The position numbers and the translations under genes are program-made. A stretch of DNA of 64,000 nt from Gammaproteobacteria bacterium (GTDB lineage Bacteria; Pseudomonadota; Gammaproteobacteria; Natronospirales; JAJUFS01). Under the pieces are notes generated by a model. The model was not told the DNA's origin, made no database searches, and saw nothing but the letters and a program-made list of their open reading frames with translations. The stretch is from assembly GCA_036381715.1 (NCBI GenBank), contig DASVCH010000069.1, positions 2,208-66,207 on the forward strand. The letters are read 5' to 3'. This document shows positions 33,179 to 63,119 of this stretch, piece by piece (positions within the stretch are counted from its first letter, which is position 1; every line of letters starts with the position of its first letter).

Positions 33179-33263
33179 TCCTTCCCGGGCGCGGCGACCA
33201 GCCATCGGCCGCGGAGCGGCCTCCTACAAGATTTCGCGTATCTTGAAGTGCGAGGCTCGACCG
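33179..33263. repeat. REP-like element, copy 1 (core hairpin GGCCGC-GGA-GCGGCC at 33207..33221)
   Basis: Alignable over about 80 nt with 41546..41631 and 63037..63119 (...CGGGCGCG-N-ATCGGCCGCGGAGCGGCCTCCTACRAGATTTCGCGT...GCGAGGC.CGA.CG). Confidence 0.8.
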
Positions 33264-33312
33264 CTTTCGCCTTTCGCCTTTCGCCTTTCGCCTTTCGCCT
33301 TTCGCCTTTCGA
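33264..33312. repeat. Pyrimidine heptamer array: CTTTCGC x6, CTTTCGA x1
   Basis: Ends 2 nt before the TonB-receptor stop. Lies inside the receptor operon spacer. Confidence 0.9.
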
Positions 33313-33314
33313 GA

Positions 33315-35498
33315 TCAGTCGAACCGGTACGCCACCGTACCGACCACCGTCCGGCGTTCGCCCCAGAAACAGTCGCCGCGCGCAAGGCAGGTCGCAAGGT
33401 ATTCCTTGTCCGCGGCGTTGCGCACGTTCAGGCGAAAGTCCCAGTCGCGCATCTCGTAACCGATCATGAAGTCCGCAAGCGTATAGGACGGCGTGCGGAT
33501 GTCATCGGCGCCATCGAAACTTTCGCCGACGTAGCGTACGCCGAGACCCGTCTTGAATCCCGGCCAGAAATGCGGACGGTAACCCAGCCACGCGGACGCC
33601 TGGTTTTCCGGCACCGATGCAAACTGGAAACCGTTCGCATTTTCGGTGTCGAGCCTGCTCGCATTCACCTCGAGCGCGAAATCGCCGAACTGCGTTTTCG
33701 ATTCGACTTCGACGCCACGAATGTTCGCAATGCCTTCCTGCTGCGAGGGCGCGTCGGGAAGCGCGAACGGATTCGCGAGGTTCGACTGCTCGATGTCGAA
33801 CGCGGCCACGGTGATGAAGGTGTGCGACCCGATCGGCTGGAACTTGATGCCGATTTCCGTCTGCTCGCCTTCCTGCGGCTTGAGCGGTTCCTGGGTGACG
33901 TTGTCGACGCCGATCACCGGTTCGAAGGATTCCGCGTAGCTCACGTACGGCGCGATGCCGTTGTCGAACCAGTACAGCGCGCCGACGCTGGCGCTTACCG
34001 CGTCGTCTTCCTGCACGGCGGCACCCGTGTCGGTGCTCACGTCGTCGAAACGCACGCCGGCAGTGAAACGCCAGCTTTTCCAGGAAATCTGATCGTTGAT
34101 GTACAGGCCGGTGTCCTGCGTGTTCGCTTCCGGTCCATCGATGAAGAACTGGTCGAGAATGTCCTGCGACGGAAACGCGCCGTACTCGGGATCGAACAGG
34201 TTGATCCAGAACTGATCGCCGTAAACGGCGTCCGGCTGGCCGGTGGCAAGGTCGTATCCCAGCGCGTAGGCGTTCGCGAGATCGTTCTCGGTCGTCACGT
34301 CCTGGTATTGAAGGCCGATCATCAGCTCGTGGTCGAGTGCGCCGGTCGAGAACTCCGCGCGCAGGCGCGTGTCCATCGCAAGCTGTTCCGAGGTCGCGTC
34401 GCTGGCGTAGAACGTCCGCGGCACCATGCCGTCGCGATACAGCGAACCGTCAGCGTTGAAAACGTAGCGCGTGCCGCCGATGAACGCCGGCCACGCCTGG
34501 TTGTAGTCCGCCGCGCCGTCCGTCCAGCGCGCGGTCGCTTCGATCGACCAGGTCGCGTTGATCATGTGATCGGCGAGCAACGTCAGCGATTGGGTTTCGG
34601 TGTTGTAGTGATCGAACGCCGGGTCGCCGTAAAAGCTTTCGATATCGAGGAATTCGCCATTCGGTGCCGGATACAGGGTGCCGTAAAGGGGAACGAACTG
34701 CTCGCCGGTGGCGCCGCTGGATTCCTGGAAGTTCGCAAGCAGGGTGAGATTCGTGCGCGCGCTCGGGCTCCACGTCACCGACGGCGCGAACACCCAGGCG
34801 TCGTTCTCGACGAAATCCACCTGCGTGCCCGCGTCGCGATACACCGCGGTCACGCGGTACAGCAGGCTGCCGGATTCGTTCATCGCGCCGCCGAAATCCG
34901 TCGCCAGCTGCATGTGATCGAAGTTGCCGAGCTGCATCACGACTTCGGAACGCAGGTTCGCGCGCGGACGCTTGCTGACCACGTTCACCAGGCCGCCGGG
35001 CGAACCCTGCCCGTACAGCACGGACGCGGGACCTTTCAGGATCTCGACCTGCTCAAGCGTGTAAACGTGCGGGCGGGTGTTGTTGTAGTTGCCGAACAGC
35101 GCCTGCAGCGAGTCGCGGTATTCCGGCACGTCCAGGCCGCGCACTTTCACCCAGTCGCCGCGCGTCGCGAAACCGTAGGCCTCGCCGAACACGCCGGCGG
35201 AATACAGGTAGGCGTCGGCAAGCTCCAGCGCGCCGCGCGCTTCGAGCGTGTCGGCTGTCTCGATGGAGACCGAGCGTGCCGTTTCCATGATGGGCGTATC
35301 GGATTTCAGCGCCGAATAGCGCGACATCTCGCCGGTGACGGTGACCTCGGCGAGACGCGCGGCCTCCTCGTCCTGCCGGTTCGAAACGTCCTCCGCCGTT
35401 GCCGATTCCGGCGCCCGGGACTCCTCTTCTTCTGCCGCCGCGACCATCGTCGCGCCAAGTCCCATGAAAAGCGCCAGAAGCCATGTCCCGTACCGCAT
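33315..35498 (-). CDS. TonB-dependent siderophore receptor
   Basis: 727 aa. Signal peptide, plug-domain motifs (EVTVTGE..., IEILKGPASVLYGQGSPGGLVN) and a beta-barrel. A Fur-box-like palindrome lies 47 nt upstream. Confidence 0.9.
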   Translation of the reverse strand: MRYGTWLLALFMGLGATMVAAAEEEESRAPESATAEDVSNRQDEEAARLAEVTVTGEMSRYSALKSDTPIMETARSVSIETADTLEARGALELADAYLYSAGVFGEAYGFATRGDWVKVRGLDVPEYRDSLQALFGNYNNTRPHVYTLEQVEILKGPASVLYGQGSPGGLVNVVSKRPRANLRSEVVMQLGNFDHMQLATDFGGAMNESGSLLYRVTAVYRDAGTQVDFVENDAWVFAPSVTWSPSARTNLTLLANFQESSGATGEQFVPLYGTLYPAPNGEFLDIESFYGDPAFDHYNTETQSLTLLADHMINATWSIEATARWTDGAADYNQAWPAFIGGTRYVFNADGSLYRDGMVPRTFYASDATSEQLAMDTRLRAEFSTGALDHELMIGLQYQDVTTENDLANAYALGYDLATGQPDAVYGDQFWINLFDPEYGAFPSQDILDQFFIDGPEANTQDTGLYINDQISWKSWRFTAGVRFDDVSTDTGAAVQEDDAVSASVGALYWFDNGIAPYVSYAESFEPVIGVDNVTQEPLKPQEGEQTEIGIKFQPIGSHTFITVAAFDIEQSNLANPFALPDAPSQQEGIANIRGVEVESKTQFGDFALEVNASRLDTENANGFQFASVPENQASAWLGYRPHFWPGFKTGLGVRYVGESFDGADDIRTPSYTLADFMIGYEMRDWDFRLNVRNAADKEYLATCLARGDCFWGERRTVVGTVAYRFD

Positions 35499-35544
35499 TT
35501 GTTCGTCTCCCGTGAGTTGTTCGCTTGCAGCAGGCGCGGATATT

Positions 35545-35563
35545 AATAAGAATCATTCTTATT
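35545..35563. promoter_or_regulatory. Fur-box-like palindrome AATAAGAAT-C-ATTCTTATT
   Basis: Perfect 9-1-9 palindrome in an AT-rich patch 47 nt upstream of the TonB-dependent receptor start. By hand it matches the 19-bp Fur consensus GATAATGATAATCATTATC at about 12 of 19 positions. Confidence 0.55.
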
Positions 35564-61226: not shown

Positions 61227-62897
61227 ATGGCGCAGTACGTTTACACGATGAACCGGGTCGGCAAGGTCGTCCCGCCGAAGAAGCACATCCTCCGCGACAT
61301 TTCGCTCTCGTTCTTCCCCGGCGCGAAGATCGGAGTGCTCGGCCTCAACGGCTCGGGCAAGTCGACCTTGCTGCGCATCATGGCCGGCATCGACACGGAG
61401 ATCGAAGGCGAGGCGCGCCCGCAGCCCGGCATCAAGATCGGCTACCTGCCGCAGGAACCGGAACTCGACCCGACCAAGGACGTGCGCGGCAACGTCGAGG
61501 AAGGCCTGGGCGACATGATCGACGTGCAAAAGCAGCTCGACGCCGTCTATGCCGCCTACGCCGAACCCGACGCGGATTTCGACAAGCTCGCCGCCGAGCA
61601 GGCGCGGCTGGAAAACATCCTGCAGGCCGCCGGCGGCCACAACACGGATCACCAGCTCGAGGTCGCGGCCGAAGCGCTGCGCCTGCCGCCGTGGGACGCG
61701 GACGTGACGAAACTGTCGGGCGGCGAGCGCCGCCGCGTGGCGCTGTGCAAATTGCTGCTGTCGAAACCCGACATGCTCCTGCTCGACGAGCCCACCAACC
61801 ATCTCGACGCGGAATCGGTCGCCTGGCTGGAACGCTTTCTCGCGGAGTTCCCCGGCACCGTCGTTGCAGTCACCCATGACCGCTACTTCCTCGACAACGT
61901 CGCCGGCTGGATTCTCGAACTCGACCGCGGCCACGGCATTCCCTGGGAAGGCAATTATTCCTCGTGGCTGGAACAGAAGGAGAAGCGCCTCGAACAGGAA
62001 GAGAAATCCGAGAACGCGCGCCGCAAGGCCATGCAGGCGGAACTCGAGTGGGTGCGCCAGAACCCGAAGGGGCGCCAGGCGAAATCCAAGGCGCGTCTCG
62101 CGCGTTTCGAGGAGCTCGCCTCCAGCGATTACCAGAAGCGCAACGAAACCAAGGAGCTTTACATTCCGCCCGGTCCGCGTCTCGGCGACCTCGTCGTCGA
62201 AGCGAAGGACATCAGCAAGTCCTTCGGCGACAAGCTGCTGGTCGACGATCTCGACTTCATGCTGCCGCCTGGCGGCATTGTCGGCGTGATCGGCCCGAAC
62301 GGCGCGGGCAAGACCACGCTGTTCCGCATGATCACGGGACAGGAGAAACCGGATGCGGGCGAACTTCGCATCGGGCCTTCCGTGCAGATTGCGTACGTCG
62401 ACCAGTCGCGCGACGCGCTGAACGCGAAGAACAGCGTGTGGCAGGAAATCTCCGACGGCCAGGACATCATCCAGGTCGGCAGTTACGAAACGCCGTCGCG
62501 CGCCTACGTCGGCCGCTTCAACTTCAAGGGCACGGACCAGCAGAAGCGCATCGGCGATCTGTCGGGCGGCGAACGCAACCGCGTGCATCTCGCGAAGCTG
62601 CTGAAATCCGGCGGCAACCTCTTGCTGCTCGACGAACCCACCAATGATCTCGACGTGGAAACCCTGCGCGCACTCGAAGAGGCATTGCTCGAATTCCCGG
62701 GTTGCGCCGTGGTCATTTCGCATGACCGCTGGTTCCTCGACCGCGTTGCGACTCACATTCTCGCCTTCGAAGGCGACTCGAAGACGATCTGGTTCGAAGG
62801 CAACTACGCGGACTACGAAGCGGACCGCAAGCGCCGCCTCGGCGCGGAAGCGGACCAGCCGCACCGGATCAAGTACCGGCGGCTGGCGAACGCGTAA
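61227..62897 (+). CDS. ettA: Energy-dependent translational throttle protein EttA (ABC-F)
   Basis: 556 aa. Near-colinear with E. coli EttA from [22 protein letters not shown] onward, with two ABC cassettes. Confidence 0.95.
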
Positions 62898-62901
62898 AAG
62901 C

Positions 62902-62922
62902 GTCGAAGGTCGAAAGTGAAAA
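62902..62922. repeat. Three purine heptamers (GTCGAAG GTCGAAA GTGAAAA) leading into the ettA terminator
   Basis: Starts 5 nt after the ettA stop. Confidence 0.8.
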
Positions 62923-62947
62923 AGCCGCGCTTCGCGCGGCTTTTTTT
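62917..62947 (+). terminator. Intrinsic terminator of ettA
   Basis: AAAAAA-GCCGCGC-TTC-GCGCGGC-TTTTTTT, 20 nt after the ettA stop and preceded by three heptamer units. Confidence 0.7.
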
Positions 62948-63036
62948 CCTTTCGCAACAAAAGCGAAGAGCAATGGACGGGACTTCGCAGGATTTTTCAG
63001 GATTTGCAGGACGTCCGAATGTGCGTGCAGGAGCGC
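62948..63036. repeat. Degenerate mosaic module (CCTTTCGCAACAAAAGCGAAGAGCAATGGACGGGACTTCGCAGGATTTTTCAGGATTTGCAGGA...)
   Basis: Same order of submotifs as 17387..17469 and 41632..41711, but more diverged. Confidence 0.6.
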
Positions 63037-63119
63037 CCTCCCGGGCGCGATTATCAGCAATCGGCCGCGGAGCGGCCTCCTACGAGATTTCGCGTGTTTT
63101 GAAGTGCGATGCGCGACCG
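63037..63119. repeat. REP-like element, copy 3 (core hairpin at 63063..63077)
   Basis: See 33179..33263. Confidence 0.8.

Follow-up and report, generated by a model that had tools for sequence, protein, structure and literature searches.

Three apparent copies of a composite element in a gammaproteobacterial genome are probably intergenic mosaics of independent repeat families

Repetitive extragenic palindromic (REP) sequences of the GTAG class are characterised by an unpaired GTAG tag beside a stem of 6-13 bp; in the GTAG-1/2 families, a dinucleotide separates the tag from the stem, and a conserved 3-nt motif flanks the other end of the hairpin (Di Nocera et al., 2013; PMC3733652). Such REPs are GC-rich palindromes of 20-40 bp which usually occur in more than 100 copies per genome, mostly downstream of genes, alongside a gene for a Y1 transposase (RAYT) that REPs typically flank. 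In several families the repeats are mainly associated as inverted dimers, and in Neisseria REPs are interleaved with other repeat families (PMC3733652). Here, we analysed a 64-kb stretch of a gammaproteobacterial genome (the window; G+C 64%) in which a REP-type hairpin (module A), an AT-rich module of tandem 9-mers (module B) and arrays of CTTTCGC-type heptamers meet in the same intergenic spacers. The original prediction for this DNA had described a single mosaic element of three copies whose modules shuffle as cassettes. The obtained results favour, with a probability of roughly 0.6, another reading, namely that the three "copies" are intergenic mosaics of independent repeat families which gather in spacers at the 3' ends of genes.

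Mosaics that consist of a few modules in varying order and number have been described as the bacterial interspersed mosaic elements (BIMEs) of E. coli, the Neisseria intergenic mosaic elements (NIMEs) and the pneumococcal BOX elements (A-Bn-C), and the window resembles them in this respect. It is unlike the described mosaics in its set of parts, which comprises heptamer arms, a putative terminator hairpin, a GTAG REP and 9-mer iteron arrays. The heptamers themselves recall the TAACTGA arrays of Beggiatoaceae, which are likewise head-to-tail 7-nt repeats, abundant, intergenic and present in a subset of genomes (MacGregor, 2015; PMC4679880); heptanucleotide long simple-sequence repeats in prokaryotes were covered by a 2007 survey, as summarised in the same paper. 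Unlike the TAACTGA arrays, the window heptamers are mostly located at gene 3' ends and not upstream of start codons, and they form complementary arms, built from several related units, around a terminator hairpin.

Reading of the sequence confirmed module A at 33179-33263, 41546-41631 and 63037-63119, together with the hairpin GGCCGC-GGA-GCGGCC in all three copies and the CTTTCGC units directly 3' of each. The recurrence of module B and its inverted pair at 51276-51375 also held, with the single copies refined to 17403-17468, 41648-41711 and 62957-63036, the last of which has diverged and lacks the GCGGGC hairpin. The order of the modules differs between the composites as had been claimed (A-heptamers-B-heptamers at 41538-41846, B-A-heptamers at 62957-63273). 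What did not survive is the single three-copy element with shuffling modules, as A, B and the heptamers were each found apart and showed very different distributions. The heptamer arrays occupy about 15 intergenic regions and, contrary to the earlier picture, are not tied to A, with more than 10 sites holding neither A nor B.

Module A was present in three copies of 83-101 nt that are ~85% similar, with a mean column identity of 77% over 170 alignment columns and an invariant 24-mer, ATCGGCCGCGGAGCGGCCTCCTAC; A1 and A2 share an extra 17 nt on the left (CTTTCGYCTTCCTTCC). The sequence CCTCCTAC occurs three times in the window against 0.24 expected, a count reached in none of 100 shuffles. The core reads ATC-GGCCGC-GGA-GCGGCC-TCCTAC, and its short, GC-rich stem-loop is perfect and invariant in every copy. 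On the minus strand, the core becomes GTAG-GA-GGCCGC-TCC-GCGGCC-GAT, that is, a tag, a dinucleotide, a 6-bp stem, a 3-nt loop, a 6-bp stem and a 3-nt motif, which agrees at every point with the tag, dinucleotide and 3-nt motif of GTAG-1/2 repeats in PMC3733652. The hairpin is therefore REP-like in the strict sense and, judged by this layout, the core of module A is a REP of the GTAG-1/2 format.

The comparison with GTAG REPs and their REP-associated tyrosine transposases (RAYT, TnpA-REP) drew on Di Nocera et al. (2013) and Nunvar et al. (2010; PMC2817692). Like the GTAG-1/2 and Pseudomonas-type REPs, module A lies outside genes and forms a GC-rich hairpin (6-bp stems, 3-nt loop) that bears an unpaired GTAG tag; all three copies are located in spacers, two of them starting at or near a stop codon. 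Unlike GTAG REPs, the core is set within ~60-75 nt of conserved flank, and the copies are singletons in one orientation, all embedded in heptamer arrays. All three are on the plus strand with no second GTAG hairpin nearby, and the inverted pairing at a distance of 1-100 bp that marks BIMEs and REP doublets forming hairpins (REPINs) was not seen; the copy number is three in the 64 kb read. In agreement with the original prediction, no transposase and no Y1/RAYT domain was found among the ~50 window proteins scanned. A promoter role for module A was considered and dropped, since A2 lies between convergent genes, which rules it out.

Beyond the window, the 24-mer of the A core was found in the Halieaceae metagenome-assembled genome (MAG) JAHEEV01 (L012 150-520; L002, L008, L011) and in Marinospirillum, in both cases without B or heptamers. 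In the Halieaceae MAG it forms tandem REP clusters with a period of ~80 nt, in which it alternates with a second GTAG hairpin. A 21-mer of the core, compared with the GTDB species representatives, matched only unrelated taxa, the window's own genome not being among them. The full-length module (85-100 nt with its conserved flanks) had no match beyond this genome in the collections searched, and the core-plus-flank pattern was absent from the viral contigs and the Joint Genome Institute (JGI) metagenomes. Confinement of the modules to the window, which the original prediction had named as an argument against dispersed repeats, was thus seen only for full-length A, with contig L013 excepted, and was seen neither for the A core nor for B. 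L013, a 1.6-kb read-assembly contig (SRR25158368) that encodes an identical FAD-binding protein and is taken as the same genome, ends inside the A hairpin, and this break weakly suggests a multi-copy repeat. The nearest homologue of the FAD-binding gene (83% identity) has a different downstream neighbour, searches for exact copies of the ABC-F and TonB-receptor proteins returned no match, and neither did a BLAST search of the composite at 41.4-41.95 kb against plasmids.

The heptamers are simple-sequence repeats. Tandem Repeats Finder reported more than 20 period-7 arrays in the window, of up to 19.9 copies, running head-to-tail with unit variants. A typical array consists of a purine-rich arm (GTCGAAG, GGCGAAA, GTGAGAG, AAGGGAG), a short GC hairpin and a complementary pyrimidine-rich arm, and in all 10 paired arrays the purine arm was on the 5' side. 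The distribution over spacers longer than 60 nt was strongly skewed, arrays being present in 12 of 13 co-directional or convergent spacers versus one of nine divergent ones (Fisher p = 2e-4). The four strongest paired arrays gave fold z-scores of -8.4, -6.9, -5.2 and -4.9, and four others ranged from -1.8 to -3.3. Four copies of a putative terminator module were located at 17360-17386, 22436-22467, 25637-25662 and 62919-62948. Each combines a GC stem of 6-7 bp and a loop of 3 nt with a T run, and a clear A run lies upstream in three. The copies at 22436, 25637 and 62919 have the form AAAAAGCCGCGC-KTY-GCGCGGCTTTTTTT, and the copy at 17360 has the stem GGCCGGC/GCCGGC. A terminator consensus scan flagged two of the four hairpin modules, its overall performance being no better than chance.

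Perfect period-7 arrays of at least four units numbered eight in the 64-kb window versus three in ~0.96 Mb of other loci (L001-L146), and long heptamer arrays were near-absent there, being seen in two of the ~145 loci, all of which come from outside the survey of viral contigs. In relatives whose RibBA is 81-92% identical (the top homologues, at 92%, come from MAGs), arrays were absent from the orthologous spacers ribBA-ribH, ribE-ribD, rimB-rimK and HDAC/rimB; the nrdR-ribD spacer of the relative L016 (RibBA 92% identical) holds a weaker heptamer palindrome. The heptamer arrays are largely specific to this lineage. Within arrays the unit changes along the run, for example from 13 CTTTCGC to five CTTTCGA, or from CTTTCGC through CTTCTCC to CTTCGAC, as expected from slippage and point mutation. 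Repeats of this kind were also observed in frame: in both the E3 (lpdA-type) and the E2 gene, the flexible linker that follows the lipoyl domain (6447-6566 and 7866-7983) carries translated repeats, a GC palindrome, CCCTCTCCCCGG(G/A)GGGGAGAGGG, translated as SPSPPRGEGRSEGE or PSPLRGEGRGEGEG, and a heptamer run (TTCGACT x3.9 and CTTCTCC x4.3), which indicates that intergenic-type repeats entered coding linkers too.

The 9-mer of module B, ACAGGATT, occurs 11 times in the window against 0.74 expected, and none of 100 shuffles reached 11. The module is present as three single-arm copies and one inverted pair. B1 is bordered by CTTTCGC units on both sides, and B1 and B3 have an identical left junction, downstream of a terminator module. 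The derived form of B1 and B2, which consists of one arm and the hairpin GCGGGC-TTY-GCCCGC, was found nowhere else in 1.44 Mb of loci. The gene ribE takes its final codons and its stop from the complete palindrome, which thereby rewrites the ribE C-terminus, and the AT-richness originally noted for the module is evident in the spacer that holds the pair, whose G+C is 41% against 64% for the window. The ribE-ribBA spacer measures 120 nt here versus 21, 58 and 35 nt in three relatives, from which the palindrome is missing; it is therefore an insertion, and this presence/absence polymorphism makes dynamic, non-autonomous behaviour real for B. One relative of the window organism carries B at another locus. 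Of the earlier proposal that the modules are non-autonomous elements resembling REPs or miniature inverted-repeat transposable elements (MITEs), the REP format of A and the polymorphic insertion of B stood, but the MITE label fits B poorly, as no target-site duplication was found.

Outside the window, module B belongs to a wide family. An exact pattern of the 19-mer class was found in at least 120 metagenome contigs with a G+C of 0.37-0.71, and a 17-base core in 63 viral contigs, 16 of which hold full palindromes. BLAST of the palindrome against plasmids gave four places on pTs485 of Thiodictyon syntrophicum and a weak Spirosoma match, and nothing else; phage records gave no match. In some contigs B recurs every 1-4 kb, and their HisF, identical to that of Ca. 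Muproteobacteria and ~90% identical to that of Sulfuricaulis, identifies them as Ca. Muproteobacteria/Sulfuricaulis-like. The unit is a strict, AT-rich 9-mer, ACAGGATTW, in two to five tandem copies, with a spacing of 9 nt in 462 of 565 intervals. The elements usually comprise two inverted arrays and measure 44-242 nt across, single-arm forms being common. Among 98 elements, the inverted arrays end in (W)AAT[G/A]GACAGGATT as terminal inverted repeats; the ends come close to 5'-TG...CA-3' in many copies and agree only over the 3-5 nt just outside GACAGG. At the variable position, the two arms matched in 43% of cases versus 40% when arms were shuffled between elements, which indicates no pairing constraint on the arms.

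The flanking target duplications envisaged earlier were sought for B in the same 98 elements, and no excess of direct repeats was detected at any offset (0-8) or length (2-9). Only one of 52 placed elements was inside a gene, and the 51 in spacers were divided among 33 co-directional, nine convergent and nine divergent ones. In 120 metagenome loci and 35 viral ones, neither a transposase nor a recurrent gene was found in the neighbourhood of B; among the clustered open reading frames (ORFs), the families that recur are housekeeping ones (ABC ATPases, HisA/HisF, glycosyltransferases) and phage portal genes alone. In his operons with 82-89% protein identity, the occupancy by B varies. Searches of Rfam with modules A and B gave no match at gathering or permissive thresholds, a literature search by the B sequence found no description of it among the papers covered, and the family is apparently undescribed so far.

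In being palindromic, 55-240 nt long, intergenic, densely repeated, without target duplication, variable in occupancy and often placed within operons, B resembles REPINs and BIMEs. It is unlike them in being AT-rich, in consisting of tandem 9-mer iterons in place of a GC stem-loop with a GTAG or CGTC tag, in arms that are not constrained to pair and commonly occur singly, and in a sequence that extends over several orders of Gammaproteobacteria and phage contigs. Some other identities for B were tried and dropped: a CsrA-type sponge, since its GGA motifs would be masked by the second arm; DnaA, Pho or IHF boxes, for which spacing and sequence are unfit; and a sigma-70 promoter, as TTGACA is present in only some copies.

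Three further observations concern the B-bearing loci. On pTs485 (L024 2960-3060, L145 2340-2620), B-type 9-mer arrays adjoin GTAG-tagged REP hairpins (GTAGGATGGGTAGAGCGCAGCGAAACCCATC; a GTAGGGTCCGCTGCGCGGACC doublet), so the sharing of one spacer by REP and B is not peculiar to the window. The low-GC phage contig L200 (IMGVR_UViG_3300044940_000160, 39% G+C) has about twelve tandem GACAGGATT 9-mers at 7820-7916, near the end of the stretch examined, versus two to five elsewhere. In Ca. Muproteobacteria-like contigs (L078 2850-3010, L046 540-620), palindromic repeats rich in GCAAAG/CTTTGC occupy spacers where relatives have a B element instead.

The arrangement of the modules suggests how such mosaics may arise. 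The heptamer arrays would be lineage-specific 7-nt repeats (CTTTCGC, CTTCGAC, CTTCTCC, CTCTCAC, CTTCTAC and their complements), probably generated by slippage, whose paired arms are predicted to fold into long hairpins that resemble bidirectional terminators; the arms may stay complementary through templated repair inside the palindrome. Module A would presumably depend on a RAYT-type tyrosine transposase that acts in trans from another place in the genome. Module B can be read as a local derivative of the widespread AT-rich family with its two inverted arrays of 2-5 ACAGGATTW, and because the 9-mers are conserved and their base pairing is not, the B arrays are likely protein-binding sites, most likely of a sequence-specific protein that would also move them. 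All three A copies and all three single-arm B copies are located within pyrimidine arms, with CTTTCGCC on both sides, and their orientation with respect to the polarity of the array is always the same. Since arrays and terminator modules are near-identical across loci, recombination between them would copy the intervening sequence. A and single-arm B thus probably spread between arrays as copies made by gene conversion or ectopic homologous recombination, for which the arrays and the common terminator module would provide the homology; such a process would mimic shuffling cassettes without a transposase. Going by the anatomy of the loci, we infer that copying between arrays is the most economical account.

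Movement of A, B and the heptamers as modules of one non-autonomous MITE/REP-like element that rearranges its cassettes would account for the presence of all three at 41538-41846 and 62899-63273, and for the CTTTCGC units that follow every A copy. It is nevertheless very improbable, given the more than 10 array sites without A or B, the solitary B at 51256-51389, the at least 120 metagenome and 63 viral contigs that carry B without A, and the near-absence of arrays where these were checked; in addition, the composites have neither common ends nor target duplications, and the order and content of their modules vary by site. Even less credible is a structured non-coding RNA gene or cis-regulatory RNA in the form of A or B. 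Both modules contain hairpins and the B palindrome reaches a z-score of -8.7 against shuffles, but no Rfam family was matched, in five of six tests the RNA of module A did not exceed shuffled sequences in folding (z ~0), its predicted structures differ between copies, the B arms show no compensatory change, and position and orientation relative to genes are inconsistent. A further reading makes B a classical MITE, a deletion derivative of a DDE insertion sequence (IS) that a full-length IS moves in trans and whose 9-mers, several in each terminal inverted repeat, would bind the transposase. B is short, non-coding, bounded by inverted repeats and polymorphic in its insertion, as are the MITEs Correia and ERIC, and its inverted arrays are terminal, many copies ending close to 5'-TG...CA-3'; multiple end-binding sites are typical of Tn7, Mu and IS21-type ends. 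Unlike Correia and ERIC, B has tandem 9-mers as its ends, lacks a target-site duplication (none in 98 elements) and has no cognate IS among the loci examined; no transposase was near it in the 120 metagenome or 35 viral loci, and single-arm forms are common. We consider this origin unlikely, and insertion without target duplication makes B REPIN-like rather than a MITE.

A host function, with the spread of the repeats due to selection, is a doubtful but weightier alternative. The heptamer palindromes would then be bidirectional terminators or 3' mRNA stabilisers, and B would provide sites for a nucleoid or regulatory protein; BIMEs, for comparison, bind IHF and gyrase. The strong bias of the arrays to gene 3' ends, their stable hairpins with A and T runs, the nrdR-ribD palindrome common to the relative with 92% identical RibBA, and the conservation of the B 9-mer in distant hosts and phages without a pairing constraint, as a protein-binding site would show, are all consistent with it. 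On the other side, most arrays and the ribE-ribBA element are missing at the orthologous sites of relatives, B occupancy is not constant across closely related his operons, and arrays were also found in one divergent promoter region and, in two cases, within coding linkers. The host-function account is compatible with the reading of independent repeat families and not exclusive of it. Several points weigh against the latter: the three A singletons share one orientation, unlike the several GTAG REP families in which inverted dimers predominate; the copy number of A rests on 64 kb of genome, and no close relative yielded a spacer orthologous to an A site; the survey of B used exact patterns, its metagenome count is a lower bound, the host is known for few contigs, and no protein partner of B was found among the neighbouring ORFs. 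Orientation-specific insertion of A and B into a heptamer motif would look alike, and the data would also suit 9-mer arrays that serve the host in a structural or regulatory role.

If the three mosaics are independent repeats, an apparent composite mobile element would be a pile-up of unrelated sequences, which calls for caution in MAG annotation and in inferring mobility from co-occurrence. The B family is the most promising lead and the novel part of the mosaic. Its 9-mer, present across distant hosts and phages without pairing constraint or target duplication, implies a specific protein partner, perhaps a nucleoid factor or a mobilising enzyme of a new kind; a precedent is the finding of RAYTs for REPs. 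The purine arm-terminator-pyrimidine arm layout would be an unusual route to long 3' hairpins, and the arrays suggest a transposase-free spread of short cassettes between microsatellite arrays. More tentatively, the GGACAGGATT module, which is shared by a Steroidobacter-like MAG lineage, Ca. Muproteobacteria/Sulfuricaulis-like contigs and Thiodictyon, might represent an undescribed class of prokaryotic repeats, moved or bound by a dedicated protein and common to gammaproteobacterial lineages and their phages; in this genome, the heptamer arrays might offer landing sites of shared sequence through which REP and half-B cassettes could spread with no transposase involved. The findings touch no long-standing open question, and the mechanisms put forward are ones that we infer. 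The features of the window are listed in Table 1.

Table 1. Coordinates of the repeat modules, heptamer arrays and associated hairpins in the window.
Feature	Position	Strand	Description
Palindrome (GTGAGAG)n...(CTCTCAC)n	8297-8370	.	Pyruvate dehydrogenase E1/E2 spacer; z -4.9; a similar one at 6853-6907
Heptamer arm and terminator	17303-17402	.	Purine (GTCGAAG)n, module AAAAAGGCCGGC-GAT-GCCGGCTTTTTT (17360-17386), first pyrimidine units
Module B copy 1 (B1), single-arm	17403-17468	+	Leader ACAAAAGC, two ACAGGATT 9-mers, GC hairpin GGGCGGGC-TTT-GCCCGCC
Pyrimidine arm (CTTTCGC)5	17469-17508	.	Ends at glutaredoxin stop codon
Palindrome without A or B	22404-22519	.	(GTCGAAA)n, terminator 22436-22467, (CTTCGAC)n; z -8.4
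Palindrome without A or B	25567-25682	.	(GGCGAAA)n, terminator 25637-25662, then CTTTCGACCTTCGAC
Module A copy 1 (A1)	33163-33263	+	Pyrimidine leader CTTTCGCCTTCCTTCC, left flank, REP core 33204-33227 (ATCGGCCGCGGAGCGGCCTCCTAC), right flank; between the TonB-receptor stop codon and the start of a 200-aa gene
(CTTTCGC)7 after A1	33264-33311	+	Ends at TonB-receptor stop codon
Module A copy 2 (A2)	41538-41631	+	REP core 41573-41596; begins right after FAD-binding gene stop codon
Two CTTTCGC units	41632-41647	+	Between A2 and B2
Module B copy 2 (B2)	41648-41711	+	Single arm and GC hairpin, within (CTTTCGC)n array
(CTTTCGC)13 then (CTTTCGA)5	41712-41846	+	From B2 to the convergent gene's stop codon
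(GGCGAAA)8	50089-50146	-	Right after ribBA stop codon; without complementary arm; absent from relatives
Complete palindromic B element, ~134 nt	51256-51389	.	Arms 51276-51320 and 51332-51375; between ribE and ribBA; fold z -8.7
Arms AAGGGAG / AGAAGAA ... CCTTCTA	51987-52061	.	Between ribD and ribE
Heptamer palindrome	53157-53233	.	Between nrdR and ribD; z -6.9
Palindrome (GTCGAAR)n...(CTTCGAC)n	57155-57249	.	The sole one in a divergent spacer; z -5.2
Palindrome (AAGGGAG)n...(CTTCTAC)n	57779-57847	.	Between RimB-like and rimK genes; z -3.3
Short purine arm (GTCGAAG GTCGAAAG) and terminator AAAAAGCCGCGC-TTC-GCGCGGCTTTTTTT	62899-62948	.	Downstream of ABC-F gene
Module B copy 3 (B3)	62957-63036	+	Diverged single arm (GGACGGGAC..CAGGATT..CAGGATT), without GC hairpin
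Module A copy 3 (A3)	63037-63119	+	REP core 63060-63083; B3 on left, CTTTCGC units on right
Compound pyrimidine array	63120-63273	+	(CTTTCGC)3, (CTTCTCC)6, (CTTCGAC)n, after A3

The genes of the window are ordinary chromosomal ones and include pyruvate dehydrogenase genes, sodB, nadC, fadE, glyA, rimK, genes for a TonB-dependent receptor and an ABC-F ATPase, and the cluster nrdR-ribD-ribE-ribBA-ribH-nusB-thiL-pgpA. At 45035-47661, two tandem paralogous Ser/Thr kinase genes with cNMP-binding domains show 72-78% DNA identity over several blocks, and the pair was also found in relatives. The FAD-binding monooxygenase-like gene at 40359-41537 has one homologue at 83% identity, the next closest being at ~61-69%, and its named homologues are mostly from Acidobacteriota and Polyangium, not Gammaproteobacteria, which suggests that the gene was acquired horizontally. 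A perfect 9-1-9 palindrome, AATAAGAAT-C-ATTCTTATT, was observed at 35546-35564 in the divergent spacer (39% G+C) upstream of the TonB-dependent receptor gene; judged by resemblance only, it is likely a Fur box-like site marking an iron-regulated promoter.

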